Of a DNA stretch of 64,000 bases, positions 3,291 through 27,737 are shown piece by piece (the first letter of the stretch is position 1; each line of letters begins with the position of its first letter). A program made the position numbers and the translations under genes. Below the pieces are notes generated by a model, which was not told where the DNA came from, ran no database searches, and was given only the letters and a program-made list of their open reading frames with translations. Source of the DNA: an uncultured Gammaproteobacteria bacterium (lineage in GTDB: Bacteria; Patescibacteriota; Microgenomatia; JAMCZE01); contig CAZXMM010000001.1 in assembly GCA_964641255.1 (NCBI GenBank), positions 15,757-79,756 of the forward strand, read 5' to 3'.

Positions 3291-3358
3291 GGGGGTGTAG
3301 TTTACGCAAAATTTTCAGCGCAAGTTGAAAGACGAAGGTTCGATCCCTTCCACCTCCA
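3291..3358 (+). other. tRNA-like 3' fragment: acceptor stem plus canonical T-arm, no recognisable D or anticodon arm
   Basis: GGGGGTG...GAAGG-TTCGATC-CCTTC-CACCTCCA. The 7-bp acceptor helix (one G-U pair) and the T-loop TTCGATC are canonical, but the middle 34 nt fold into no cloverleaf. Confidence 0.25.
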
Positions 3359-3360
3359 CT

Positions 3361-4368
3361 ATGGATAGTAGTTCATTTTTAAAGCAGCTAATAGAAACCG
3401 TACCCGACTACGAGGTCTCTCCTGATGAGAAAAAGCGAATCCAATTTGAGGGCATTGAAAAATTCCTTTATGCGAAACTAACTTCATCTAAATTTAAGGC
3501 GGCAGCCCTACCCCAAGAATTCCAACAGAAGGTGAAAGAAAAAATTAGTTATTGCGTCAATAATAGTTTGCCAATCCACATAACTATCCCTTTCGGAGGT
3601 TATAAGAAATGGCAATTGCCTACAGCCCCACTCCCCGACTGGGCTGAGGTTTTTAATTTTGTTCTGGTTAGAGACTACCTAGCTCCGATTGCAAAAATAT
3701 ATAAACACGGTGTTGTTTTGGAATACTTTTCTGACGAAATCTTTATAGCACCGATGAATAATTACCCTCAGAAAGACCTAGATCAATACAACGAACAGTT
3801 TGAAGAACTTATCAGCTATCTAAAGGATTTCCTTCCTCCTAAGTTTGTGGCCAAATGTTCAAAGATTAGAGATTTTATTTCTCAAGAAGAAATATTAAAA
3901 AGATTTGAACAAGCTTACCGAAAGCTCCAGGGCGATTATGAAAGTTTGTCTCCCAAAGAGAAGCAAGTCAAAATGGCGAAGACAGAAAGAAATTATCAAG
4001 GGGACCTGCGTGATTTGTCTGAAAATGAAAGACAAAGAATACTTTTTGGCTCATATTTAATCCACGAAGCGTTCACTAAATACGACTGGGATCTGGATAT
4101 TCCTTGGGCATTTGACAAGGATATGATTGCTTTAGGATTTTGCTACACTGGCTCCTGGGGCATTCATCTTCGCTCCTCAACCTCTTCAACGGTGCAATTT
4201 TGGATCGGCACTGGAACACTACTGAAAAGGGCCGATCGCTTCATCCCCACAATCTTGACTTATGAGCAATATCAAAAATCCCAAAAAGTCTTAAAGCAAG
4301 AGGCGGTTACTCTATTTCCAGAGAAATTTAGTAATCTCCAATCTGTGGCACTTCTTGAGCAGGATTAA
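3361..4368 (+). CDS. hypothetical protein (335 aa)
   Basis: Long ORF with a plausible ATG at 3361, after trimming the upstream tRNA-like segment. No family recognised. Confidence 0.5.
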   Translation: MDSSSFLKQLIETVPDYEVSPDEKKRIQFEGIEKFLYAKLTSSKFKAAALPQEFQQKVKEKISYCVNNSLPIHITIPFGGYKKWQLPTAPLPDWAEVFNFVLVRDYLAPIAKIYKHGVVLEYFSDEIFIAPMNNYPQKDLDQYNEQFEELISYLKDFLPPKFVAKCSKIRDFISQEEILKRFEQAYRKLQGDYESLSPKEKQVKMAKTERNYQGDLRDLSENERQRILFGSYLIHEAFTKYDWDLDIPWAFDKDMIALGFCYTGSWGIHLRSSTSSTVQFWIGTGTLLKRADRFIPTILTYEQYQKSQKVLKQEAVTLFPEKFSNLQSVALLEQD

Positions 4369-10149: not shown

Positions 10150-10497
10150 TTAATGTACTACCTCTCCGGGTAAAATCTCCTTATCAAAAGTATAAAGAAC
10201 CGCTTCGTCTGTTCCCGAAGCCAGCAGCATCCCCCGACTTTCATAGCTAACACCGGCAATTTTAAAATGCTTCGGAGCCAAATTTACCACAAATATCAAC
10301 CTTCTACCAACCAGGCTTTCTGGTTCGTACCACTGGCTGATTCCCGAATAGATAGTTTTTTTTGAAGTTTCGCTGCCAAAATCGACGGTGAGTTCTAGAA
10401 GTTTTTCGCTGCCAGGAACGAGACTAGCTTTAATTACCATTCCCACGCGAAGATCCAATTTTTTAAAATCGTCAAGGGAAATTTCCGGTTTTTCCAT
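10150..10497 (-). CDS. tRNA-binding domain protein (CsaA/Myf/EMAP-like OB fold)
   Basis: LDLRVGMVIKASLVPGSEKLLELTVDFGSE resembles the MetRS C-terminal/CsaA tRNA-binding domain. Confidence 0.65.
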   Translation of the reverse strand: MEKPEISLDDFKKLDLRVGMVIKASLVPGSEKLLELTVDFGSETSKKTIYSGISQWYEPESLVGRRLIFVVNLAPKHFKIAGVSYESRGMLLASGTDEAVLYTFDKEILPGEVVH

Positions 10498-13600: not shown

Positions 13601-13865
13601 GTAAGTAGCATTATATCAACTGGTTGCAAACCGAGTCCAGATTCTAGATTGGCTCTAGGCTCTCACGATTAAATCCTCTCCCGTTTCGCTACGGGCGATT
13701 GACACTGAGCACAAAAAAAACTAAAATTGCTCATAGCAACGCGGGGTAGTGTAAAGTTGCATGTCAGGCTAGTAGAAGTGGGCCCTATGAGGAGTAATCT
13801 TCATAAGAAAATTTGGCTATATCGGTGGACAACCTCAATGTAAGTTGGGGTCAATACCGAGGGAA

Positions 13866-13885
13866 CCCAAGAAGACATTCTTGGG
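13866..13885. repeat. perfect inverted repeat CCCAAGAA-gaca-TTCTTGGG, candidate att/recombinase site
   Basis: 8-bp perfect arms with no adjacent U-run, about 70 bp from the serine recombinase stop. Confidence 0.45.
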
Positions 13886-13914
13886 ACTCCGTAGAGACTA
13901 AACGCCAAGCTCCC

Positions 13915-13929
13915 GCACTAAGTTAGTGC
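13915..13929. repeat. 15-bp perfect palindrome GCACTAAGTTAGTGC
   Basis: Seen directly, 24 bp downstream of the recombinase stop. Confidence 0.45.
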
Positions 13930-13952
13930 AGGATGATGATATAGTCCTACCC

Positions 13953-15725
13953 TTACAGTAATGTAAGAAGGTGCATAATCTGACGGTCCCAGTGCGATTC
14001 TGGGCCCCGCAACAAAGTAGGAACAGCCGAGACAAACTCGGCTGTTTTTGTTACATCGACGGTCTCCTCATTAGGTACAATCCTTTTCCCAATAATTGGA
14101 ACCTGCTTTTTCATCTCGACAATCTTTTCAAAGTAAAACGGACTGTCAAAATCAACTGTTTTATCTTGGAGGGTTAGGTGCAATCCACTTAACCCAATAA
14201 AGATATCGCGTTTGACTTTCGGATCAGTGGTTATGGCGAATGTCTTGCGAGCCTGGGCAGCAAAAGAAATAACTTTAACAGTTTCGTCATTGGCTTGGAT
14301 CATTCGCTCGTCAATGTTGCCGATTTGTTTTTCCACCACTTTAATTCCCGCTTCAAGTTCGAGCTTTCTTATTTTGAATTCCTCGTCACTTAACAAACTA
14401 CCATCAGTATTGGCTGGTGAGATCTTGAGAGCTACCAAGTTGTCTAGTCGCTTCCTAGAGTCATCGTAGGCTTTCTTAGTGGCATCGATAGTAGTCTCCC
14501 GAAACTGTTTCTCTTCCTCCTGCATTAAGCGAAGTTGGTCAATGGCCCATTCGAGAAAAAGGGGACTAAGCTCTATCTCTGCTAATCGCTGGTCAGTCTG
14601 CCGTTCCAATTCTTTGTCGCTGATGGAAAGCTCTTTGCAAAGTTTGCTTTTCTTGCGGCCACAACGGTTGTAAACGTAGTAGCGCATGGTCGGGTTAGTC
14701 ATGTCCTTAATGAAAGTGTCGCAGTGGGGACAATGATCTTGAACCTTTTTCGTGAGTTGAAATTTAGTCCGACAGTTAGTGCAGACTACTTGCCATTTTC
14801 CGTCTGTTACAACACCGGATGCACAAAAACCACACTTCATAGTGTGGGCATAGGTGTAGTTATGCTTGGTCTTGTACTGACTGACCTTCCCAAGTTTTAT
14901 TTGAACTTGCTCAAATACTTCAGGACTTATAGCCCGTTCAAGAGTAGGATTACTTTCAAACCAGTTGCCGCTTCCCACGGGATATTCAAACTTACCGCTA
15001 TAGAAAGGATTATTAAGAATCATATAAACTTCACTGAGGCAAAGTGGCCTTCCGCCAATCCTTTTCTTTTGTGGAGTAGTGAGGTGCCACTCTTCCTGGC
15101 TAAGCCGAAGGATTTCTGTTACCGGAGTGCCACTCAAAAAGAGCTCGAAGACTTTCTTTACAAACGGGAAGCGTTCCGGATCGAGGTATATCCGGCGTAG
15201 ACCACTCTCCGTGCCTTTGTCGTTAAGGTAACCTAGCGGCGCCCAGCCGGGCCGCCAGCCCTCTCGACATTTTTTCTCTAGTCCTCGTGAGACCACGATA
15301 CTCTTGTCATCACTATCCTTCTTAGAATTAGCAAACTCGACAGAAAGCATCCACTTGTCTTCCGGGGTATTTCGATAAATCCGGCTTGGTGTCCTGATTT
15401 CAATTAGCTTGCCCATATCCATAAGGTTAATGACGTCTCCTCCGTCTGACATGTTTCTTGCCAAGCGGTTGGCGTGCCAAGTGGCTATAGCATTAGCTTT
15501 ACCGGTGTCAATGAGGGAGAGCATTTCGCTAAATTTTTCTCTCTGTCGAGGTATGTGGGCAGATTTGCTTTCCTGAAGAATGTCGATTATTGTAAGTCCT
15601 TGTTTAGATTTTAAGCCCTCAAGAATAAAGAGTTGGTCCGGCAACGAAGCCGCCTGTCTTTCCTTATTATCTTCCGAGCTCTTTCGTGCGTAGCCAATAT
15701 ATTTTAGAGTAACTTGAGTGTCCAT
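13953..15725 (-). CDS. large serine recombinase (resolvase/invertase N-terminal domain, recombinase domain, zinc ribbon)
   Basis: YIGYARKSSEDN catalytic-Ser region, long recombinase domain, CGFC...CTNC...CPHC zinc ribbon, C-terminal coiled coil. ATG at 15725; the track ORF starts further upstream. Confidence 0.8.
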   Translation of the reverse strand: MDTQVTLKYIGYARKSSEDNKERQAASLPDQLFILEGLKSKQGLTIIDILQESKSAHIPRQREKFSEMLSLIDTGKANAIATWHANRLARNMSDGGDVINLMDMGKLIEIRTPSRIYRNTPEDKWMLSVEFANSKKDSDDKSIVVSRGLEKKCREGWRPGWAPLGYLNDKGTESGLRRIYLDPERFPFVKKVFELFLSGTPVTEILRLSQEEWHLTTPQKKRIGGRPLCLSEVYMILNNPFYSGKFEYPVGSGNWFESNPTLERAISPEVFEQVQIKLGKVSQYKTKHNYTYAHTMKCGFCASGVVTDGKWQVVCTNCRTKFQLTKKVQDHCPHCDTFIKDMTNPTMRYYVYNRCGRKKSKLCKELSISDKELERQTDQRLAEIELSPLFLEWAIDQLRLMQEEEKQFRETTIDATKKAYDDSRKRLDNLVALKISPANTDGSLLSDEEFKIRKLELEAGIKVVEKQIGNIDERMIQANDETVKVISFAAQARKTFAITTDPKVKRDIFIGLSGLHLTLQDKTVDFDSPFYFEKIVEMKKQVPIIGKRIVPNEETVDVTKTAEFVSAVPTLLRGPESHWDRQIMHLLTLL

Positions 15726-15843
15726 AATAATGCCCCCGCCGGTTGTAGTCAGAACGGTGAAGTCCTGTCCGACGAGGGCATTAAAAAACTCCACCGAAAG
15801 TTCTGACTACACTTTAATTATTTAGCTGTTCTTTATGATTGTC

Positions 15844-15996
15844 AAATTAAGATTTTTTACCATTACCATAGATTGCTTTAACAATCCAGATAAGCCTTCT
15901 TGAGTATTCGTGAGCTTCTTGTTCGGTCAATATGACTCCATATTCCTCGAAATACAGTTTCTTAAATTTCTCTATAGCTTGTTGAGACAATCGCAT
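15844..15996 (-). CDS. small hypothetical ORF (50 aa), not in the supplied track
   Basis: ATG lies 2 nt after the stop of the upstream gene. Translates MRLSQQAIEKFKKLYFEEYGVILTEQEAHEYSRRLIWIVKAIYGNGKKS. Confidence 0.25.
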
Positions 15997-15998
15997 GT

Positions 15999-16250
15999 CT
16001 AGCCCTCTTCCCTAAAAGCATCAAAAGCCAGCATTAAGTCTTCTTCGGTTTCATACCACCCATCGTTCCAGAAATCTGACATTTCTCCGTAGCTGTCTTC
16101 ATGCTTGCCATAGGAAATCCGCAGATAGACTTTTATTGGCCCATGTTGCCAATTTATCGTGCGTATAATTTTCAAAAAACGGCGCAAAGAACCTGTTCCG
16201 ACCCTAATGACCTCCACATCGTTTTTAATGATTTTTAGTATGTACTTCAT
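15999..16250 (-). CDS. hypothetical protein (83 aa)
   Basis: ORF overlaps the upstream gene by 4 nt, suggesting an operon. No family recognised. Confidence 0.4.
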   Translation of the reverse strand: MKYILKIIKNDVEVIRVGTGSLRRFLKIIRTINWQHGPIKVYLRISYGKHEDSYGEMSDFWNDGWYETEEDLMLAFDAFREEG

Positions 16251-16810
16251 GCCTTGTCGGTTGATTTACTACGATTTTTTCGTCTTCTTGGCTTTCGATG
16301 CCCGATTGCTGAAGTAAAATACTTCGCCGGATTTTCAAATGTTTTCCAACCTCCCGTAGAGCTTTTAAGCATTTCATTCAGAGTTCTATTAATTGCTCGG
16401 GGGTTGTGACGTTGGGCAATATATAACCAATGATTTGGCTTTTCGGGCCAAGGCCATTCCTTGAAGAGTTCACCTAACAGCGCGGCTACTTCCATAGGAG
16501 GGGTAAGGTAATTGCTATTTTTTAGTTTGCTGATAAGTGATAGCTTAGGCTCGGTAAACTCGAAGTTACCTTCTTGTTTACAAGTACCACTAACCAATCC
16601 ACTAACACTTCCATTCTCACTCTCAATCGCTGTGTTAATAGTTTCATAAGGTTTGCTCTTAACTGGGTGAGACTCGGCAATAGCCTCGCAAGCCAGAAGT
16701 TGATCTTCAATGGACAAGCCACAGTCGGGATCATAACGTGCCCCGTAGCTCTCGATTTTGCGGATCAATCTATTTTTGTAGGTATTCTCCCTATCCATAA
16801 GCAATAACAA
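16247..16810 (-). CDS. hypothetical protein with basic C-terminal tail (possibly DNA-binding)
   Basis: 187 aa ending GHRKPRRRKNRSKSTDKA. No family recognised. Confidence 0.4.
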   Translation of the reverse strand: MLLLMDRENTYKNRLIRKIESYGARYDPDCGLSIEDQLLACEAIAESHPVKSKPYETINTAIESENGSVSGLVSGTCKQEGNFEFTEPKLSLISKLKNSNYLTPPMEVAALLGELFKEWPWPEKPNHWLYIAQRHNPRAINRTLNEMLKSSTGGWKTFENPAKYFTSAIGHRKPRRRKNRSKSTDKA

Positions 16811-16856
16811 AAAACCTGCACCGTTGGGAGCCGATGCAGGTTTTGTCTCCCAACGA
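16809..16856. promoter_or_regulatory. two mutually exclusive 8-9-bp hairpins plus a U-run, immediately upstream of the 16810 start (attenuator-like or bidirectional terminator)
   Basis: AACCTGCA...TGCAGGTT with flanking A5/T5, and CGTTGGGAG...CTCCCAACG, sharing sequence. Seen directly. Confidence 0.4.
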
Positions 16857-17015
16857 TAGTTTTGGGATATCCTATCGAAGGAAGTAATTGGTAGGTACTA
16901 GATAATTGGGGTAAACCCCTTGGCTACATTTGCACTGTGCGAATTGTGCTCAGAGATCCTTTGTTAAATTCCAGGAATATCTTTCCATTATCTAGATGCG
17001 GGGACGACGTCCTTA

Positions 17016-17216
17016 TTGATATTATTTGCCAGTCTAGTACTAATCTCCATGACTATTCCACTCTTATCAGCACGAGAATACCGTTTGAAATATGGAATTA
17101 GAAAAAGTACTTTTTATGACAGAGTGAGGAAAAACAAAATTGTGGCTTTCAAAGTCTCGCCGAGAAAACTTTGGTTGTTGCCCCTGTCGTATCGCATTAG
17201 CAGCATAAGTTATTAG
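17016..17216 (+). CDS. excisionase/AlpA-like HTH (HTH_17) small DNA-binding protein
   Basis: LLSAREYRLKYGIRKSTFYDRVRKNKIVAFKVSPRKLWLL aligns with the Xis/AlpA pattern (L-s-e-a-l-gv-sr-T-y-w---G-lp--kig-r-w). The start codon is uncertain. Confidence 0.4.
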   Translation: MILFASLVLISMTIPLLSAREYRLKYGIRKSTFYDRVRKNKIVAFKVSPRKLWLLPLSYRISSISY

Positions 17217-17288
17217 GCCCGATCATGTCTGGACGTCAACTAATCTTTGGATGCCCTCCCCGCCTTGCGGTTGCTCCCGGTACCGGCT

Positions 17289-17501
17289 CTACCTAAAAAG
17301 TTCGCTTACGGAGATTCTTAATGCTTTAGCCAAACTAGATATTTTCTCAAGGGAGGGATTACGCTCGCCCCGTTCGATTGCACCCATGTAGCTTCTCTCA
17401 ATACCAGCAATATGAGCGAGTGCCTCTTGGCTTGGTCCCATCTGCTTTCTTAGTTTTCTGATATTTTCGCCGAAGTTTTTCTGGACTTTCGTATTGGCCA
17501 T
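17289..17501 (-). CDS. XRE-family (Cro/CI-like) HTH transcriptional regulator
   Basis: IRKLRKQMGPSQEALAHIAGIERSYMGAIERGERNPSLEKISSLAKAL is a canonical HTH_3 domain. ATG at 17501; the track ORF begins at a TTG at 17510. Confidence 0.75.
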   Translation of the reverse strand: MANTKVQKNFGENIRKLRKQMGPSQEALAHIAGIERSYMGAIERGERNPSLEKISSLAKALRISVSELFR

Positions 17502-17540
17502 ATTGACCAATTGTCGACACCAGTGCTACTATGAGTCCAC

Positions 17541-17566
17541 GTGATATATCACTCAGTAATGAGTGA
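17541..17566. promoter_or_regulatory. composite palindromic operator candidate between the XRE gene and the divergent operon
   Basis: GTGATATATCAC (12-bp perfect palindrome) overlapping TCACTCA-gtaa-TGAGTGA (7-bp arms). Confidence 0.45.
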
Positions 17567-17604
17567 TTAGCTCGTAACAGGGCTATCTTAGATGGAGATG
17601 TAAT

Positions 17605-17859
17605 ATGAAGAGGTATCTCACCGAAAGTGAGACCAACAAAGACCCGCTTCTTAGAACCCTTGCAAATGTGGAGCCGGTGGTGGGATGGATTGTCTACATC
17701 GGGATTGGTATTTATTTCATCCTCACTTGGAATTTCTATGTCACCGCCGTCACTTTCCTCATCTATACGTTTATCATTTCTCCTCTGCTTGTTGAATTTG
17801 TTTTAGACCGTTTGATGATGGCAATCTACTACTTAATTAGGGGGATGCCAAAAATATAA
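17605..17859 (+). CDS. hypothetical 2-TM membrane protein
   Basis: 84 aa. GGAG Shine-Dalgarno sits 8 nt upstream. The stop overlaps the next start (TAATG). Confidence 0.45.
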   Translation: MKRYLTESETNKDPLLRTLANVEPVVGWIVYIGIGIYFILTWNFYVTAVTFLIYTFIISPLLVEFVLDRLMMAIYYLIRGMPKI

Positions 17860-18479
17860 TGTTTGGCTTTTTTAAATCACCTAAAGACAGCTTTTATGAA
17901 CAATTGAAACGAGCGACGTATGAAGCCGCCATACTGGTCGACAAAAAGGATATAACAGGTAAAGAAAAAAACGTTTTGTACAGTATTATCGCAACCGGAG
18001 GATTATTCCCGACTATTTACTCACAGCCTCTCGATCTTGGTGATGGCAAATTATTAATAAGTGACGCAGATTTTGAATGTACGAGAGACAAAAAGCCCGG
18101 TGCTCTTTTACCAATTTTTTGTGTTTATTGCCTCTTTAACCTAATTGAAGTATCGAAAAACGATAAAGTCTTTGGGGCAAGATTTAACAAAATATTGCCG
18201 GGAGTGAAGACTGTCCTCTCCGAAGTAACGGATCTTGAACCAAAAGGTATTGACACTCTATTAGATCAACTCGAAGAGCGGGAAGGTGAGGATGGCATCG
18301 GGGCCGTTTATCCTCTCATGTACGCCCAGCCATTAGAGCTTATTTTTGGGTCTGACAGAGCAAAATCAATTCTCTTGGAATTATCTAAAAATCCTCTAGG
18401 TTCAACAGGCATTTCCTTGGCAATTCCATCAATGTTCATCGATTTCATCAAGGGTGTAAAGACGGAGCTTGCCGAATAG
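17859..18479 (+). CDS. hypothetical protein (206 aa)
   Basis: Translationally coupled to the upstream ORF. No family recognised. Confidence 0.45.
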   Translation: MFGFFKSPKDSFYEQLKRATYEAAILVDKKDITGKEKNVLYSIIATGGLFPTIYSQPLDLGDGKLLISDADFECTRDKKPGALLPIFCVYCLFNLIEVSKNDKVFGARFNKILPGVKTVLSEVTDLEPKGIDTLLDQLEEREGEDGIGAVYPLMYAQPLELIFGSDRAKSILLELSKNPLGSTGISLAIPSMFIDFIKGVKTELAE

Positions 18480-18574
18480 TTAGTCATGGTCATTCTCTGT
18501 CCAGCTTCGCAGCACTGCTTGTCCCAATAGCCATCCCCCCCCAACTCCCTAAATCTAGTTATAATAATCTCTCT

Positions 18575-19351
18575 ATGAAGTTGGGCGAACTAATCGAAAA
18601 AGTTACAATTCCATCAAAGCCGGTTAGAGTAATTATTCCTGTAAACGGTAAGCACAAGGCACTATTCTTTCTGGGAACAACAGCAGACGGGAGTCTTATG
18701 GTGGATCCTTCAATTGGATGCAGTTTCGATAATTGGCGGTATAGTTTTTGTACCGTTCCCAGGGGAAAAGTGCAAAATATAAGCGTCCCACTAGATCAAA
18801 AATCGATGATAGAATCCGGGAAAATTGGACCTAAAATTACTTATCATAAGAGTGGCTTTGTAAAGGTAGGTAAAACCAAGCTGTTGGAACCAGTTAGTAT
18901 TTGGGCAACCCCCCTGGATATTGCGTTTGGGCACCTGTTTACATATCAGGCTAAGGGTTTCCAGGGATTCAATTCTGTTACTACGCCCAATCCCAAATAC
19001 TCCGACATAATGCCAATAATACCAGCAGGATTAAAAACGCTAAAAATAGTTGCTCATGCGGGGAAATTGGAACACCTTATACCAACAATGGATCAAGTAA
19101 ATATATCGACACTTAGCAGACCAAATAGGATCTTTGAGAAGGACAATGGTAACTTGACAGAGATATCACTTTTCAAAATTAGCATAGCTTCGAGAGATAT
19201 CTGGATAAAATTAACGTATATTCCAAATTTTATCCTGACCCAGAACCCACAACCTAGCATAAATAGTTTGATTGGCTGGGATCAAGATAAAGCCGACGAT
19301 CTCAGAAAACCACTTAAGTTCGTAGCAATAGCAGCGGGGGGCGACTGGTAA
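18575..19351 (+). CDS. hypothetical protein (258 aa)
   Basis: TATAAT box upstream. Followed by conserved 3' motif copy 1. Confidence 0.45.
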   Translation: MKLGELIEKVTIPSKPVRVIIPVNGKHKALFFLGTTADGSLMVDPSIGCSFDNWRYSFCTVPRGKVQNISVPLDQKSMIESGKIGPKITYHKSGFVKVGKTKLLEPVSIWATPLDIAFGHLFTYQAKGFQGFNSVTTPNPKYSDIMPIIPAGLKTLKIVAHAGKLEHLIPTMDQVNISTLSRPNRIFEKDNGNLTEISLFKISIASRDIWIKLTYIPNFILTQNPQPSINSLIGWDQDKADDLRKPLKFVAIAAGGDW

Positions 19352-19388
19352 TTAATTCCCAAAACTAGATATTGGTATTTCGAGGAAC

Positions 19389-19430
19389 AAATTCCTGATT
19401 TCTTCCATTCCCCGCAACACAAAAATACTT
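19389..19430 (+). repeat. conserved 3'-cassette motif copy 1 (AAATTCCTGATTTCTTCCATTCCCCGCAACAC + A-run)
   Basis: One of four related copies, each 0-40 nt after a stop codon. Confidence 0.6.
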
Positions 19431-19438
19431 GGAGCATA

Positions 19439-19467
19439 AAGACGGTCCGTCTTCGTTTCTTCTTCTT
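19439..19467 (+). terminator. intrinsic terminator (GACGG-tc-CGTC plus T-rich tract)
   Basis: Hairpin followed by TTCGTTTCTTCTTCTT. A TGnTACAAT -10-like box follows at 19470-19478. Confidence 0.45.
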
Positions 19468-19484
19468 AATGCTACAATAGTAAC

Positions 19485-20141
19485 GTGCATACAAGAAAAG
19501 GGAATAGCTTAACTGTTATTCTGTTGGCAATTGCCATATCTTCAGTGGGAATAGTAAGCTACTTTTACTGGAAATCAGAAAATGTCCCCCCCGTCATTCA
19601 AATTCAAGAAAAAATAGTAAATCAAGACAACCCTTCGCAGAATAAATTATCAGAAAACTGGAAATTTCATTTTGACAACCGTCTTGCTTTCCAAGTTAAG
19701 ATTCCTCAAGATGCAGAAACTCAAGTTGTGCCCGCTGGCTTTGACAATGAGATGGGATTTGGTCCCGAGGGAATTTCCAGAATGGAATTCTCCAACAAAG
19801 ACTTTCTAATAAAGGTAGAACCCTCCACAAACAGGAGAAACGACCAAACTTTACAACAACTTGGTGAAACAAGAGAATTTAATGGCCTACCAGGTACTTC
19901 TCACCCAAGTCCTTGTTCAAAAGGTGCAGAGAAAGAAGAAATCCAGTTGCGCAGTGGAACTAAAGCATTTCTATGTGATAGCGTTCTTCCAAGCGGGCGA
20001 AAGTTTGGTATGGCCGCCACGATTTTAGGCAAAAAGTATTTTTACAACATAACAACAGGTAGTATTTATTCTCCAAACTTCACTGATAAAGAACAGGAAA
20101 TTTTTATGGAATTTCTTAACACCTTTCAGCCCACTGATTAG
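19485..20141 (+). CDS. hypothetical signal-anchored secreted protein (218 aa)
   Basis: GTG start at 19485. N-terminal TM helix LTVILLAIAISSVGIVSYFYW. Followed by motif copy 2. Confidence 0.45.
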   Translation: MHTRKGNSLTVILLAIAISSVGIVSYFYWKSENVPPVIQIQEKIVNQDNPSQNKLSENWKFHFDNRLAFQVKIPQDAETQVVPAGFDNEMGFGPEGISRMEFSNKDFLIKVEPSTNRRNDQTLQQLGETREFNGLPGTSHPSPCSKGAEKEEIQLRSGTKAFLCDSVLPSGRKFGMAATILGKKYFYNITTGSIYSPNFTDKEQEIFMEFLNTFQPTD

Positions 20142-20158
20142 TATGAGAGTTTTAGAAA

Positions 20159-20193
20159 CCAATTTCTGATTTCTTCCACTCCCCGCAACAAGG
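20159..20193 (+). repeat. conserved 3'-cassette motif copy 2 (CCAATTTCTGATTTCTTCCACTCCCCGCAACAAGG)
   Basis: Differs from copy 1 by a few substitutions. Confidence 0.6.
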
Positions 20194-20201
20194 AAATTCA
20201 A

Positions 20202-20229
20202 GCCGTATCAACGGCCTGTTTTATTTTTT
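20202..20229 (+). terminator. intrinsic terminator (GCCGT-atca-ACGGC plus TTTTATTTTTT)
   Basis: Hairpin and U-run seen directly. Confidence 0.55.
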
Positions 20230-20251
20230 CTGCCATGATACTATTATTTAC

Positions 20252-20497
20252 ATGAGTCTCTTTAAGAAAATCCTCCGTGTCATTACCATAGTGGTAGTAG
20301 CGTTTCTGCTAATAGGAGTTGCTTATTGGGGATTTAAAAGTGTTTTAGCAAGAGTTGCCCCAGAAAATAGCTTGGTTGATTGTCACTATTTTGATAATGA
20401 CTATGATGCGTGTAGTAAGCGACCAGACTGTTTACCAATCACAATTGGGGGAATTGGTAGCAGCCCAGCAGTTCATAGTTGTCAAACAAAGAAATAA
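20252..20497 (+). CDS. hypothetical small signal-anchored Cys-rich protein (81 aa)
   Basis: N-terminal TM helix. Four Cys in the C-terminal 35 aa (CHYFDNDYDACSKRPDC...HSC). Confidence 0.4.
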   Translation: MSLFKKILRVITIVVVAFLLIGVAYWGFKSVLARVAPENSLVDCHYFDNDYDACSKRPDCLPITIGGIGSSPAVHSCQTKK

Positions 20498-20537
20498 TTT
20501 CTGATTTCTTTCACTTTTCGCAACCAAAAAATCAGGA
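20494..20537 (+). repeat. conserved 3'-cassette motif copy 3 (AATAATTTCTGATTTCTTTCACTTTTCGCAACCAAAAAATCAGG)
   Basis: Overlaps the stop codon. CTGATTT...AAATCAG forms a 7-bp stem around the conserved loop. Confidence 0.6.
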
Positions 20538-20653
20538 GCGTGTAAACAGTCCGTTCGGTTATCCAAGATTATTGCTTCACATTTGTTTATTTCTAAACAA
20601 ACCTCGGACCAAACATTTGATACAATTGTGTTAGATAGTCTTGCGCTAAATAC

Positions 20654-21007
20654 ATGAGAAATAAAAAACTTGCAATCACTACCATAATAGTGGGAGGAAT
20701 AGAAGGTTTACTTGCGCTCTTCCTTTCCTCTTCTTTCCTACCAAAAATCATGCAAGTATACGAAGATTTTGGTGTGAATATCCCAATAACTACCAGCCTT
20801 ACCCCCTATATTTTTATATCCCCCGCCTTATTAAGCCTGATTGTGGGGACCTTAATTTTGACTTCCAAAAACAATAGCAAACGCTACAATTCCTGGGCAA
20901 TAATAATCCTGATAGCAACTCTAATTTTTATTTTTCTGGGTTTGCCCCTACTCTTCTCTGTAGGGTTCCTTTTTCCCATGTTCAACTTAGTAAACGTCAT
21001 AGAATAA
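20654..21007 (+). CDS. hypothetical 3-4-TM membrane protein (117 aa)
   Basis: TGaTACAAT box about 30 nt upstream. Followed by motif copy 4. Confidence 0.4.
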   Translation: MRNKKLAITTIIVGGIEGLLALFLSSSFLPKIMQVYEDFGVNIPITTSLTPYIFISPALLSLIVGTLILTSKNNSKRYNSWAIIILIATLIFIFLGLPLLFSVGFLFPMFNLVNVIE

Positions 21008-22790: not shown

Positions 22791-22863
22791 GCCAGGGTAG
22801 CTCAGTGGTAGATGCGTGCGCTTCATAAGCGCAAGGTCGAGGGTCCGATCCCCTCCCCTGGTA
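22791..22863 (+). tRNA. tRNA-Met (anticodon CAU), somewhat degenerate
   Basis: Acceptor GCCAGGG/CCCTGGT with G1-U72 and A73. Anticodon stem TGCGC/GCGCA, loop TTCATAA. T-stem GAGGG/CCCTC. However, the D-stem has only 2 Watson-Crick pairs and the T-loop reads TCCGATC (C at position 55). Upstream promoter TTTGCTACAAT. Confidence 0.55.
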
Positions 22864-23267: not shown

Positions 23268-24113
23268 ATGGACGATAGTCTTACTCAGTTTGTAGATTAC
23301 CTCAAATCCGCGAAAAAAGCTTCTGCCACCATTATCGCGTATAAAAAGGATATCGACCAGCTTCTCGACTTTGTCAAAAAGCAAGGGCGTAGTACGATTG
23401 GTTCCGTAACCACTGAGGATTTAAATAGCTTTCTAGGGGTACTTCAGGCACAAAATTATACCCCCAAGTCGGTATCTCGCAAGATCAATTCGATTAAGAC
23501 CTTTTACCGTTTTCTTAGCCAAAACAAGCTCATTACTAACAACGTCGCCGCAGCTATTAACCACCCGAAGTTTGACACCAAGGCTCCGCGGATTCTCTCG
23601 CGGCTCGAATACCGCGCCCTGCGTGATGCCTCCCGAGACGATAGTCGCATCGCGGCCATCATCGAGCTCCTACTGCAAACTGGAATGCGAATTGGGGAAT
23701 TAGCAGCCCTGCGAGTAGGCTCGATTGGTGATCACTTTTTAAAGATCCCGCCAGTTGAGGGTCACGCCGAACGTGACGTTCCTCTCAACAAATCCGCCAA
23801 ACTGGCCCTAGATCGCTACCTCGCCTTACGACCCAACGTCGACTCTAACGCTCTCTTTATCACTAAAACCGGCCGCCCATTGTTAATTAGAAACATTCGC
23901 ACTGCTATCGACCGCTACTTTAAACTAGCGGGCATTGCCGGAGCTAAGGTCAACGATCTTAGGCACACCTTTATTGCCCACCACCTGGCGGCAGGCACCT
24001 CCCCAGTGCTCATTAGTAAGTTGGTTGGACACAAAAGAATCAGTACTACTGAAAAATATCTTGAGTTTATCAAGGACCTCCCCACGGAAAAAATGAAGCT
24101 GGAAGAGCTTTAA
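23268..24113 (+). CDS. tyrosine site-specific recombinase, XerC/XerD family
   Basis: SAM-like N-terminal domain. Catalytic R (GMRIGEL), HxxR (LRHTF) and GHKRISTTEKY (His/Tyr). Confidence 0.75.
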   Translation: MDDSLTQFVDYLKSAKKASATIIAYKKDIDQLLDFVKKQGRSTIGSVTTEDLNSFLGVLQAQNYTPKSVSRKINSIKTFYRFLSQNKLITNNVAAAINHPKFDTKAPRILSRLEYRALRDASRDDSRIAAIIELLLQTGMRIGELAALRVGSIGDHFLKIPPVEGHAERDVPLNKSAKLALDRYLALRPNVDSNALFITKTGRPLLIRNIRTAIDRYFKLAGIAGAKVNDLRHTFIAHHLAAGTSPVLISKLVGHKRISTTEKYLEFIKDLPTEKMKLEEL

Positions 24114-25135: not shown

Positions 25136-25279
25136 TACTTTTTTCAAGCGAAACTGTTCTGTATTTCTTCCCATTGGGGCCAGATTATACCGCCGGCACA
25201 ATATAAAGGCAAAATAAAACACGTGGCTAGCTGGGCAAATTTCGGTGACCAGGGAAATAAATTGCTATAATTTAGCATC

Positions 25280-25351
25280 AGGATCCGTCGTTCAACGGTT
25301 AGGACATGACTCTTATAAAGTCATTACAATGGTTCGACTCCATTCGGATCC
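25280..25351 (+). tRNA. tRNA-Ile (anticodon UAU)
   Basis: Clean cloverleaf: acceptor GGATCCG/CGGATCC plus A73, D-stem GTTC/GGAC, anticodon stem TGACT/AGTCA, loop CTTATAA (T34 A35 T36), T-arm AATGG-TTCGACT-CCATT. Extended -10 promoter TTGCTATAAT about 10 nt upstream. Confidence 0.7.
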
Positions 25352-25364
25352 ACTAGATTTGGGG

Positions 25365-27737
25365 CTAGAAAAGGTGGGACCGAGAGGCGATTTCTGCTTC
25401 CACCTCGCGGATGTCTCGAGCGTATTTGAGAGAAGACAACTCCTTAATCATCTCGGCCACCTTGGGGTTTCTCCCCTGATTGATTTTTTCAAAATCGTGA
25501 TTAATTTCTACACTAAAGACTGGTACCGGCTCGTTTTTAACGAGCGTTTTCATATAACCGTTGTAAGCTTCGACTTTCAGCAGGTCGGATTCGCTAAAGG
25601 TGGGAGAATATTCGTGGGCTAAGAACTGGGCGTCAGCTACCCCGACCCGAAAGGCAATCTTGGTGCCTACGTTACCAAAAATGGCATTTTTGACGTCCTC
25701 TTCGACCTGGGAAATGAACTGATTGGCTACTGTCAGAGCCAGTCCGTACTTGCGAGCCTCGGAGAGGATCACGGCGAAATCAGGAGTGGCAAAATTTTGA
25801 AACTCATCAACATACAGATAGAAAGGTATGCGTTCGGCTTCCGGGATGTCTTGCCGAGAGATAGCTGAGGCTAAAATTTTAGGTACCAACAGGTTGCCAA
25901 TAAAATTACTATTTTCTTCTCCAATTAACCCCTTGGCTAAATTGACAATAATGATCTTGCGCTCATCCATGGCCTTGCGGAAGTCAAAAGCGCTCTTTGA
26001 CTGACCAATAATATTGCGGATCATTTTATTGACCACGAAGCGGCTAAATTTGGAGACGATATAATCTAGGGTCTCAGACTTATGGAACTCAGTAGTAGAG
26101 GCAATTTGCTCGGTCCAAAACCGCTTTACCATCTGGTCACTCACTCTGGGGAGAAGTTCCTGCAGAAATGGCCCACCGGGATCTTGTAGTACGCGCATTA
26201 CTTCAATTAGAGTGCCCTCGGGCATTGCCTCCATGACCGTCAACATGGCATTGCGCACCGAATGTTCGAGACGGGGACCCACAATTCCGGTTTGGTGCGG
26301 GTCGTAGAGCTTATAAAGTAGACCGATAAAGCCCGAGACCACCATGTGACGCTGCATATCACTGTGAGCTTCCATGATATTCCAACCCATTGGTCGGTTT
26401 AAATTTGAGGGATCAAAATAGATTACATCCTCGGCCCGCTCGGGGGGAATCTGTTCCAGAATCTTTTCAAACGTATCGTGAGGATCAATGAAGCACACCC
26501 CTTTACCCTCCCGAATATCTTGCAGGATCATTTGGGACATAAGAAGCGACTTTCCAGTACCAGTGGCACCGATAATATACACGTGGCGCAACCGGTCGGG
26601 ATCAAGCAAATGGACTTCCCGCTCTTGACCCCGAAAAACAGACTTACCCACGAGTAACCCGCCATGATCAGGAACCTGTTGGGGAGCGGGCGCCCGTTTA
26701 GCATTGAGCCAAAAAATACCCGGGGTTTCAATTGATTTATTAGGAAAATGACAAATGGTGGCTAACTCCTCAGCCGATAAAATACTAGGGGTAGCAAATA
26801 ATGGTTGGTAGCGGTAAATAAAGTCGGTCATAAAGTTGTGGGCAATACGGATTTTGTCGCCCGAAAAACCGTTTTGATCCGAAGAAAATTGGGAGAATGA
26901 ACCCTTGAGATTATCTAGTATAGATTTGGCTTGAGCTTTATCGGCGGCACTGACTACAATCCGAATCGAGGTAGAAAAACCCACTTTACTCACTTTATTC
27001 TCAATCGCCTCTAATGTCTTGGCGTCCACGTTAAACTTGGCCTTTTCCGGATCGGCCTCGTTTTTCTTGGTTTTACTAATATACTTTCTTCCCTGACTGC
27101 GCCACTCATTGGGGGCCGGAGCGACAATAAACTGTACCACCGCTCCCTCTCCTTCACTCAGCTTGGCAAGACTGGAAGTGATCTGGGAAAGCGGATCCAC
27201 CGCTAAATCACGAAAGTTCTTAATTGGCATATAATTGGCGGCTTTAAGCTTCAAACTAGCGAAGGCGACCTCTCCTTTTTCCGAAAAAATTGAATGATCT
27301 TCGACTTCCAAAATAGCGGCGCCGTTAAAAGTGGAGTGAATTTGCTTTTCGATCAGATCGCGTTGTTTCTGGGGGACGGACACATAAAACCTGATGTCTC
27401 CGGGCCGACCCACTATCTCAAAAGAGATATGATCCTGAATTCGTAAAAAATCAAAATCAAACCAGCTCGACTTACCACGATAAATCGAATAAAGTGAGGA
27501 AAAAAATTGCTCCATGGCGTCGATCTTGACTTCATTGTCTCTGGGCACCGCTACCTGAAGCAGGACATAATCTAGGGCGTGTTCCTCCCGATTGCGCCAC
27601 TTATAAAACTGGAGGAATAGGTAACCTAACAAGCCCAAGGACACAACCACCAAAGTAATCGTCAGCAGTCCAATAGCTACAATGGCTGTCAGTTCTGGAA
27701 GTTGTAATAAAAAGACGTCAAGGGCAGCGAGATCCAT
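25365..27737 (-). CDS. VirB4/TraC/ConE-like (AAA_10/DUF87-type) membrane-associated P-loop ATPase
   Basis: 790 aa. N-terminal TM helices, Walker A IIGATGTGKS at about residue 395 followed by CFIDPHD, and Walker B YLYVDEFQNF. The architecture matches VirB4-type conjugation/T4SS ATPases. A HerA/FtsK-like ATPase is the alternative. Confidence 0.5.
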   Translation of the reverse strand: MDLAALDVFLLQLPELTAIVAIGLLTITLVVVSLGLLGYLFLQFYKWRNREEHALDYVLLQVAVPRDNEVKIDAMEQFFSSLYSIYRGKSSWFDFDFLRIQDHISFEIVGRPGDIRFYVSVPQKQRDLIEKQIHSTFNGAAILEVEDHSIFSEKGEVAFASLKLKAANYMPIKNFRDLAVDPLSQITSSLAKLSEGEGAVVQFIVAPAPNEWRSQGRKYISKTKKNEADPEKAKFNVDAKTLEAIENKVSKVGFSTSIRIVVSAADKAQAKSILDNLKGSFSQFSSDQNGFSGDKIRIAHNFMTDFIYRYQPLFATPSILSAEELATICHFPNKSIETPGIFWLNAKRAPAPQQVPDHGGLLVGKSVFRGQEREVHLLDPDRLRHVYIIGATGTGKSLLMSQMILQDIREGKGVCFIDPHDTFEKILEQIPPERAEDVIYFDPSNLNRPMGWNIMEAHSDMQRHMVVSGFIGLLYKLYDPHQTGIVGPRLEHSVRNAMLTVMEAMPEGTLIEVMRVLQDPGGPFLQELLPRVSDQMVKRFWTEQIASTTEFHKSETLDYIVSKFSRFVVNKMIRNIIGQSKSAFDFRKAMDERKIIIVNLAKGLIGEENSNFIGNLLVPKILASAISRQDIPEAERIPFYLYVDEFQNFATPDFAVILSEARKYGLALTVANQFISQVEEDVKNAIFGNVGTKIAFRVGVADAQFLAHEYSPTFSESDLLKVEAYNGYMKTLVKNEPVPVFSVEINHDFEKINQGRNPKVAEMIKELSSLKYARDIREVEAEIASRSHLF

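Follow-up and report, generated by a model that had tools for sequence, protein, structure and literature searches.

Analysis of a 64,000-nt stretch of an assembled contig (CAZXMM010000001.1, positions 15,757 to 79,756; hereafter the window) revealed a gene for a tRNA-Ile whose anticodon is encoded directly as UAU. This tRNA-Ile(UAU) is a vertically inherited, conserved chromosomal core gene across a class-level clade of the Candidate Phyla Radiation (CPR, Patescibacteria); neither the tRNA nor its anticodon is an artefact, strong selection acts on both, and within the lineage the UAU anticodon is the rule rather than a rarity. Decoding of AUA as isoleucine is, with little room for doubt, the most likely job of this tRNA. 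The best explanation overall, in which we place moderate confidence, is a functional, inherited tRNA-Ile(UAU) that acts as the main and probably the only AUA decoder and has replaced the lysidine system. In the canonical arrangement, which relies on tRNA-Ile2(CAU) and TilS (with lysidine or ava2C), AUA is likewise read as isoleucine and AUG is not; there, however, the gene has C34 and lysidine is added post-transcriptionally, whereas the gene in the window encodes T34 and its product is therefore no TilS substrate.

The tRNA-Ile(UAU) gene, its structure and its promoter

25281–25352, forward strand: tRNA-Ile(UAU), supported by ARAGORN, by Rfam RF00005 (62.2 bits) and by covariation in 43 homologues
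25263–25271, forward strand: extended -10-like element TGcTATAAT, inferred promoter of the tRNA, read from the sequence

ARAGORN reported three tRNAs in the window, one of them a tRNA-Ile with anticodon tat at 25281–25353, and the Rfam tRNA model RF00005 matched end to end over 25281–25352 with 62.2 bits (E = 4.3e-11; gathering score 29). A preliminary description of this DNA had proposed a tRNA with UAU at positions 34–36, which both programs and the covariation among homologues bear out; the span that it gave, 25280–25351, lies one base too low. The gene is 72 nt long, uninterrupted by an intron, and present in a single copy in the window. Its acceptor stem reads GGAUCCG/CGGAUCC, the discriminator A73 lies at 25352, and CCA is not encoded. 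The anticodon loop, CUUAUAA, occupies 25312–25318, with UAU at 25314–25316. All four stems pair, with one G-U pair (U12-G23), so that the cloverleaf described earlier stands; it is not fully textbook in form, as its variable loop is 4 nt long and a C stands at position 9. The isoleucine identity elements A35, U36, A37, A38 and A73, read from the sequence, are all present.

The -10-like element ends 9 nt before the 5' end of the tRNA. A hexamer resembling TATAAT or TAAAAT (at least 5 of 6 matches) lies within 25 nt upstream of the UAU tRNA in 51 of 67 loci, mostly ending 7–14 nt before the 5' end and often preceded by TG. A generic sigma-70 two-hexamer scan did not flag the -10 box of the tRNA, because there is no -35 box at a spacing of 16–18 nt. 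Taken together, these motifs suggest independent transcription of the tRNA at the level of a consensus, short of proof of expression.

Conservation and synteny in Microgenomates relatives

25365–27737, reverse strand: VirD4/TraD-like type IV coupling-protein ATPase, the synteny anchor of the tRNA, identified from Pfam, NCBIfam, homologues and literature

Conservation was assessed by running ARAGORN on 80 species loci around homologues of the ATPase encoded next to the tRNA. In 66 of the 80 loci a tRNA-Ile(UAU) lies 3–3953 nt downstream of the ATPase gene, and these loci span Gottesman-, Beckwith-, Ames-, Shapiro-, Levy-, Curtiss- and Woesebacteria; most of the loci that lack it end just past the ATPase gene. 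The tRNA is far beyond a chance match. Relatives yielded 66 distinct UAU tRNA homologues altogether. When 43 of these were aligned with RNAalifold, the cloverleaf emerged again, with compensatory double changes in 18 of the 21 base pairs, and C32-U33-U34-A35-U36-A37 (CUUAUA) is invariant. Of the full anticodon loops, 50 read CUUAUAA and 17 CUUAUAC, with A and C, respectively, at position 38, while A37 and A73 occur in every homologue listed.

Several peculiarities of this site and of these tRNAs were also observed. In one Amesbacteria genome (locus L020, 12345–12419) the place directly behind the ATPase gene is taken by a tRNA-Glu(UUC) instead of the tRNA-Ile(UAU); in its D arm, T loop and 4-nt variable loop it is like the subgroup of UAU tRNAs to which the copy in the window belongs, and it may represent an anticodon shift or a gene replacement at the syntenic site. 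In two other loci, truncated 5' halves of tRNAs that reach the anticodon loop, e.g. CTCAGTGGTAGAGCACCACTCTTATAA, abut the intact tRNA-Ile(UAU) on its upstream side (L010, upstream of 12850; L024, upstream of 12450), and look like remnants of duplication or recombination at the site. Furthermore, the canonical T54-U55-C56 of the T loop is missing from many of these CPR tRNAs: among 67 UAU tRNAs the T loop starts with TTC in 42, TCC in 17, ATC in 7 and CTC in one, and the T loops of the tRNA-Met and tRNA-fMet of the window read UCCGAUC and UGCGAUU, respectively. This pattern suggests that pseudouridine 55 (TruB) and the T54-A58 pair may not be universal in the lineage.

Usage and meaning of AUA codons

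Codon usage, to which the preliminary description had pointed, shows that AUA is in regular use and is read as isoleucine. The 57 open reading frames (ORFs) of the window contain 181 AUA among 19,502 codons, i.e. 9.3 per 1000 and 14% of isoleucine codons (the value quoted for Escherichia coli in a TilS study is 4.9 per 1000; PMC12514573), and they occur in 50 of the 57 ORFs, including ftsH and the ribonucleotide reductase genes. When 1,174 AUA codons of orthologues from the 80 loci were compared with the corresponding residues of the window, these were I in 50%, V in 17%, L in 9.5% and M in 2.2% of cases, a profile indistinguishable from those of AUU and AUC. Conversely, at the 47 testable ATA sites of the window the orthologues have mainly I, V or L at most sites, and mainly E or M at none; examples are FtsH residue 316 (I in 8/8), penicillin-binding protein residue 331 (I in 16/16) and ATPase residue 108 (I in 73/80). 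AUG codons align mainly with methionine (28–36%), as against 2–3% Met for AUA, a gap which implies that the two codons have been kept apart over evolutionary time. AUA is thus a normal isoleucine codon here.

CAU tRNAs and the search for tilS and ileS

22791–22863, forward strand: elongator tRNA-Met(CAU) with C3-G70, not Ile2(CAU); ARAGORN, Rfam 55.3 bits
13740–14013, forward strand: initiator-type tRNA-fMet(CAU) with a group I intron; ARAGORN with introns allowed (-i), Rfam RF00028

The CAU and UAU tRNAs of the window are three, namely tRNA-fMet, tRNA-Met and tRNA-Ile(UAU). The first bears initiator marks (C1xA72 and the anticodon stem A29G30G31/U39C40U41), and the second has the C3-G70 pair that serves as a criterion for tRNA-Met as opposed to tRNA-Ile2 (Silva et al., 2006; PMC1635315). 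In Ile2-type tRNAs the acceptor stem shows G3, A3, C70 or T70 instead, often with C4-G69 and C5-G68. All 52 CAU tRNAs found in the loci of relatives fall into the fMet and Met classes, and within the elongator-Met class position 3 is C in 29 of 32 CAU tRNAs and never G or A. No Ile2(CAU)-like tRNA was found in the window or among these 52.

The anticodon loop of the tRNA-fMet is split by a 203-nt group I intron at 13771–13973, matched by RF00028 with 77.4 bits over 13761–13968. Discussion of group I introns in CPR bacteria usually centres on rRNA genes. In most relatives the orthologue is 71 nt long and lacks an intron, and two more carry an intron (L025, 13510–13815; L043, 20236–20509).

Pfam scans detected no ORF with PF01171 or other TilS-like similarity in the 64-kb window. 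No TilS was found in the window and 81 related loci (1.37 Mb), nor in 32 metagenome loci (0.2 Mb; described below), by phmmer, with TilS sequences of E. coli, Geobacillus and Aquifex from the PDB as queries, or by scanning for the PP-loop motif SGGxDS. The search space, 64 kb of a contig of ~950 kb plus related DNA, thus amounts to 1.57 Mb, most of it from two neighbourhoods. A common place for tilS in bacteria is directly upstream of ftsH or of hpt-ftsH. Upstream of ftsH in the window are genes for a protein with a tRNA-binding domain, a NUDIX protein and TrpRS, with no tilS among them. The first of these, immediately upstream of ftsH (10150–10497, reverse strand), encodes a stand-alone tRNA-binding domain of 115 aa that is similar to CsaA or to the MetRS C-terminal domain. 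For ileS, the window and the collected loci were searched by the KMSKS motif and ORF length, which returned only TrpRS/TyrRS-type and ValRS-like ORFs and GyrA.

A second CPR class with tRNA-Ile(UAU)

A degenerate pattern that combined the D arm, the anticodon loop and the T arm was run against metagenome contigs and yielded 32 loci (L083–L114). Three of them have the Microgenomates arrangement. About 20 of the 32 are low-GC contigs (0.30–0.39) on which ftsH, tRNA-Ile(UAU) and tRNA-Val(GAC) stand in tandem (e.g. L089, 2602–4602; L098, 1678–3703), and the close homologues of their FtsH proteins are named Pacebacteria, Paceibacterota or Minisyncoccia. In this class, the AUA decoder therefore adjoins ftsH, the usual neighbour of tilS in other bacteria, and upstream of ftsH on such Paceibacteria-type contigs are genes for S1-domain proteins, PNPase or hypothetical proteins, with neither TilS nor Hpt. 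The ftsH tandem, together with the ATPase-linked loci, demonstrates a conserved tRNA-Ile(UAU) in at least two of the major CPR classes, whose conserved gene neighbourhoods around it differ. The remaining metagenome matches include high-GC contigs and contigs of unknown taxon.

Some of the Paceibacteria FtsH homologues (P0168, P0189, P0190 and P0208) are ~1030–1055 aa long with matches to intein and LAGLIDADG domains (PF14890, PF14528), by which they are classified as intein-containing FtsH proteins.

Comparison with known AUA decoders

Among characterised bacteria, genes with a UAU anticodon are indeed rare, as the preliminary description had held: tRNADB-CE listed 19 species with TAT in 2014 (PMC4013482), and TilS was found in 98.18% of 1093 bacteria (Diwan and Agashe; PMC6063277). 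Taniguchi et al. (2013) listed nine species from three clades as lacking tilS, and a few others with both systems; in Mycoplasma mobile, Bifidobacterium and Neorickettsia, which are without tilS, tRNA-Ile(UAU) is in use (PMC3575796). In the literature searched, no link was found between CPR or Patescibacteria and lysidine, tilS or tRNA-Ile(UAU). A UAU tRNA-Ile as such is therefore of an already known kind; its scale here, fixed across whole classes of a major radiation, seems to be unreported.

The closest known counterpart is that of M. mobile, which lacks tRNA-Ile(CAT) and tilS and has tRNA-Ile(TAT) instead (Silva et al., 2006; PMC1635315). Its U34 is unmodified, Arg865 of its isoleucyl-tRNA synthetase (IleRS) confers recognition of UAU, and its ribosome rejects AUG (Taniguchi et al., 2013; PMC3575796). 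As in the window, an encoded bacterial UAU reads AUA as isoleucine in a small genome, the tRNA is intron-free with A37 and A38 in its loop, and AUA is a regularly used codon; neither Ile2(CAU) nor tilS is seen nearby in the window. However, M. mobile is a lone species in a class that has tilS, whereas the CPR gene is fixed across a class-level clade and occurs in a second class, and it is for M. mobile that the absence of tilS, the unmodified U34, the role of Arg865 and the rejection of AUG have been demonstrated.

Bifidobacterium and Neorickettsia offer a similar lineage-level (genus-level) swap of the lysidine system for a UAU tRNA, explained there by a horizontally acquired eukaryote-type IleRS (PMC3575796). 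In Bacillus subtilis, a suppressor of tilS deletion proved to be tRNA-Ile1 with a G34U change (Fabret, 2011; Kohrer, 2014; PMC3919564), which shows that AUA can still be decoded in the absence of lysidine if a UAU tRNA-Ile is present. That suppressor is a laboratory mutation of a GAU tRNA, whereas the CPR tRNAs are ancient natural genes, most of which, in a crude identity comparison, have a body nearer to the Ile2/Met type. Eukaryotic and archaeal AUA decoders are also dedicated to AUA, and the eukaryotic one also has UAU, but the gene in the window is bacterial and without an intron. Eukaryotic tRNA-Ile(UAU) needs its intron for pseudouridylation at positions 34 and 36, and archaea use a C34-containing tRNA-Ile2 converted to its agmatidine form by TiaS.

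Probable replacement of the lysidine system and its alternatives

Under the explanation that we favour, the tRNA would be transcribed from its own -10-type promoter and charged with isoleucine by IleRS, recognition depending mainly on A35, U36, A37 (presumably t6A), A38 and A73, and it would read AUA through a U34-A Watson-Crick pair. It would have taken over from the lysidine system of tRNA-Ile2(CAU) and TilS, as in M. mobile, and misreading of AUG might be avoided by an adapted IleRS, an adapted ribosome or a modification of U34. An IleRS suited to U34 would be expected to have Arg or Lys at the position of W905 in E. coli, or to be of the eukaryote type. We infer expression, charging by IleRS and loss of tilS and tRNA-Ile2(CAU) in this CPR lineage; that the tRNA is the sole AUA decoder, both of the latter having been lost, we consider reasonably probable. 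A redundant tRNA would be unlikely to be kept universally in genomes of 0.6–1 Mb. The preliminary description had left the choice between loss of tilS and dual systems, and the evidence leans towards loss.

Several observations weigh against replacement. TilS is otherwise extremely stable in bacteria (98%; PMC6063277), and bacteria with two systems exist, namely Lactobacillus casei, Cyanothece PCC 7424 and Ferrimonas balearica (PMC3575796). The window covers only 64 kb of a ~950-kb contig, so that tilS or tRNA-Ile2(CAU) may lie elsewhere, and with random placement only ~1.7 copies of tilS would be expected in 1.57 Mb, which makes its absence there weak evidence. The metagenome contig L102 (GC 0.50, unknown taxon) carries a tRNA-Ile(UAU) and, 0.9 kb apart, a CAU tRNA with G3-C70, the signature of Ile2(CAU) (1582–1658 and 2471–2546); this candidate for a natural dual system indicates that such systems occur in nature. 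Furthermore, 5–6 of the 80 loci (L002, L016, L020, L033, L036 and partly L025) extend well beyond the ATPase gene without a UAU tRNA within 10 kb, and the synteny of ATPase and tRNA is therefore not absolute. Finally, the D arm and 4-nt variable loop give the tRNA body of the window subgroup a somewhat tRNA-Glu-like character, so that its isoleucine identity is argued from the anticodon, from A37, A38 and A73 and from codon evidence rather than from an isotype model. Crude identities to reference tRNAs of E. coli and B. subtilis were uninformative, all lying at 0.5–0.8 (0.69 for Glu and 0.69 for Met/Ile).

The first alternative is a dual system, in which tilS and tRNA-Ile2(CAU) would also be encoded outside the window and the UAU tRNA would be a redundant or auxiliary AUA decoder, comparable to the transition state proposed for L. 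casei, Cyanothece and Ferrimonas. Such an arrangement is possible, though on balance we think it rather unlikely. Besides the documented dual carriers, the pair of tRNAs on L102 and the prevalence of TilS, described as evolutionarily stable, it gains from the fact that more than 90% of the genome lies beyond the inspected DNA. Against it, the window and 1.57 Mb of related CPR DNA yielded neither a TilS-like ORF nor an Ile2-like CAU tRNA, and tilS is not upstream of ftsH in either CPR class. The three dual carriers share with the CPR a chromosomal tRNA-Ile(TAT) gene, but there tilS is kept and the UAU gene is sporadic (PMC3575796), whereas in the CPR the gene is clade-wide, keeps a fixed position and the same anticodon throughout a radiation of class rank whose genomes are very small, and is accompanied by no tilS or Ile2(CAU) in the DNA searched.

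A second alternative concerns the fidelity of decoding and is compatible with both replacement and a dual system: an unmodified U34 might read AUG as well as AUA, with a low level of isoleucine at methionine codons being tolerated (a statistical proteome). U-G wobble is expected of an unmodified U34, the M. mobile tRNA-Ile(UAU) confuses AUA and AUG on E. coli ribosomes (PMC3575796), and the same concern was raised by Silva et al. (PMC1635315). On its own ribosome, however, M. mobile rejects AUG, and the alignment of AUG mainly with methionine, although no direct measure of fidelity, contrasts with the rarity of Met at AUA; we regard such misreading as improbable.

Pseudogene status, a regulatory role as a tRNA-like element, or a tRNA identity other than isoleucine, e.g. 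a Glu-type body with a mutated anticodon, are all very improbable readings of the gene. The tRNA-Glu-like D arm and 4-nt variable loop of the window copy and the tRNA-Glu(UUC) at the syntenic site of L020 would fit such an origin, but the compensatory changes in 18 of 21 pairs, the UAU loop invariant in 66 species, a crude identity no better for Glu than for Met/Ile, and window ATA sites that are mostly I, V or L and at no site mainly E in orthologues all speak against it.

Genomic context

23268–24113, forward strand: Xer-like tyrosine recombinase of the XerC/XerD/XerA family, 281 aa; Pfam, NCBIfam, tblastn

Pfam scans of essentially all long ORFs revealed the gene content of a cellular chromosome, including RecF, FtsH, TrpRS/TyrRS, DivIC, NrdR, both ribonucleotide reductase subunits, GAPDH, PGK, a split transketolase, two class A penicillin-binding proteins and DUF5667. 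The 790-aa ATPase next to the tRNA has homologues named Patescibacteria, Microgenomates, Gottesmanbacteria and Beckwithbacteria. On account of this gene content and these names, the window is assigned to the chromosome of a Microgenomates-group CPR bacterium.

The ATPase had been described as VirB4-like; its domains (DUF8128, HerA/DUF87 and TraG-D_C, with a further match to TrwB) show instead, in both Pfam and NCBIfam, a resemblance to VirD4/TraD coupling proteins. A total of 5825 homologues were found, and an alignment-based scan with one genome per species detected relatives at 56–74% identity in at least 579 species genomes. VirD4-type coupling-protein homologues have been reported in 2,918 of 3,035 CPR genomes, mostly apart from virB4 and possibly exapted (bioRxiv 10.1101/2025.01.22.634366). 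The ATPase is thus a core CPR gene and not a gene of a mobile element. The recombinase matches the NCBIfam models XerC (2e-47) and XerD (3e-44), each below the equivalog cut-off, and is conserved nearby in 41 of the 80 loci with a median identity of 55% (tblastn).

The suggestion that the tRNA arrived on a mobile element is contradicted by these data. Although the gene sits between a tyrosine recombinase and a type IV secretion-type ATPase, and a probable integrated element with a large serine recombinase lies ~4–11 kb away (at roughly 14–21 kb), its recent arrival as cargo of an integrative or conjugative element equipped with such a recombinase and ATPase is scarcely credible, given the synteny of the tRNA (66/80) and Xer (41/80) with the ATPase at 55–60% protein identity, the near-universality of the ATPase family in CPR genomes, the flanking housekeeping genes (DivIC, NrdR, ribonucleotide reductase), a flat GC content around the tRNA (0.44–0.49), the absence within the window of any att-like repeat of its 3' end, and the lack of a match to its sequence in viral contigs. 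For the window, the tRNA therefore counts as a normal part of the core genome of the lineage and does not point to horizontal transfer.

The probable integrated element (~13950–21000) adjoins the tRNA-fMet gene and is separate from the tRNA-Ile locus. It contains a 613-aa large serine recombinase, a helix-turn-helix protein and many small ORFs without a Pfam match; the recombinase gene runs on the strand opposite the group I intron and overlaps the final 21 nt of that intron with its 3' end. The GC content of the element is lower (0.41–0.42), and several of its ORFs are unusually rich in ATA (13 in 18575–19351 and 9 in 20654–21007). Elsewhere in the window, an odd tRNA-like gene (3291–3359, forward strand; Rfam tRNA, 40.9 bits) overlaps the predicted start of the ORF 3325–4368; its acceptor stem and T arm are good, its D arm and anticodon arm are irregular, and ARAGORN gives no firm anticodon ('ca', Cys or Leu).

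Implications for the CPR

TilS and lysidine are regarded as essential to bacteria and as all but universal among them, and the use of TilS as a drug target specific to bacteria has been discussed. Exceptions known so far amount to a handful of species, whereas the CPR makes up a large share of bacterial diversity. That the lysidine system has been lost across large parts of the CPR, including at least Microgenomatia and Paceibacteria, with AUA being read by an ancient encoded tRNA-Ile(UAU), is a proposition for which we judge the chances to be even. If it is true, the CPR would be by far the largest bacterial group without lysidine, and what had been a rare exception would become a major alternative solution to the discrimination of AUA from AUG. 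It would also imply a lineage-wide guard against misreading of AUG, in the form of a changed anticodon-binding site of IleRS, special ribosomal decoding or a new modification of U34, and would make the IleRS and ribosomes of the CPR natural test cases for the suppression of U34-G wobble. In practical terms, tilS (TIGR02432) would then be unsuitable as a marker of completeness or phylogeny for CPR genomes, and annotation pipelines should expect tRNA-Ile(TAT) in this radiation.

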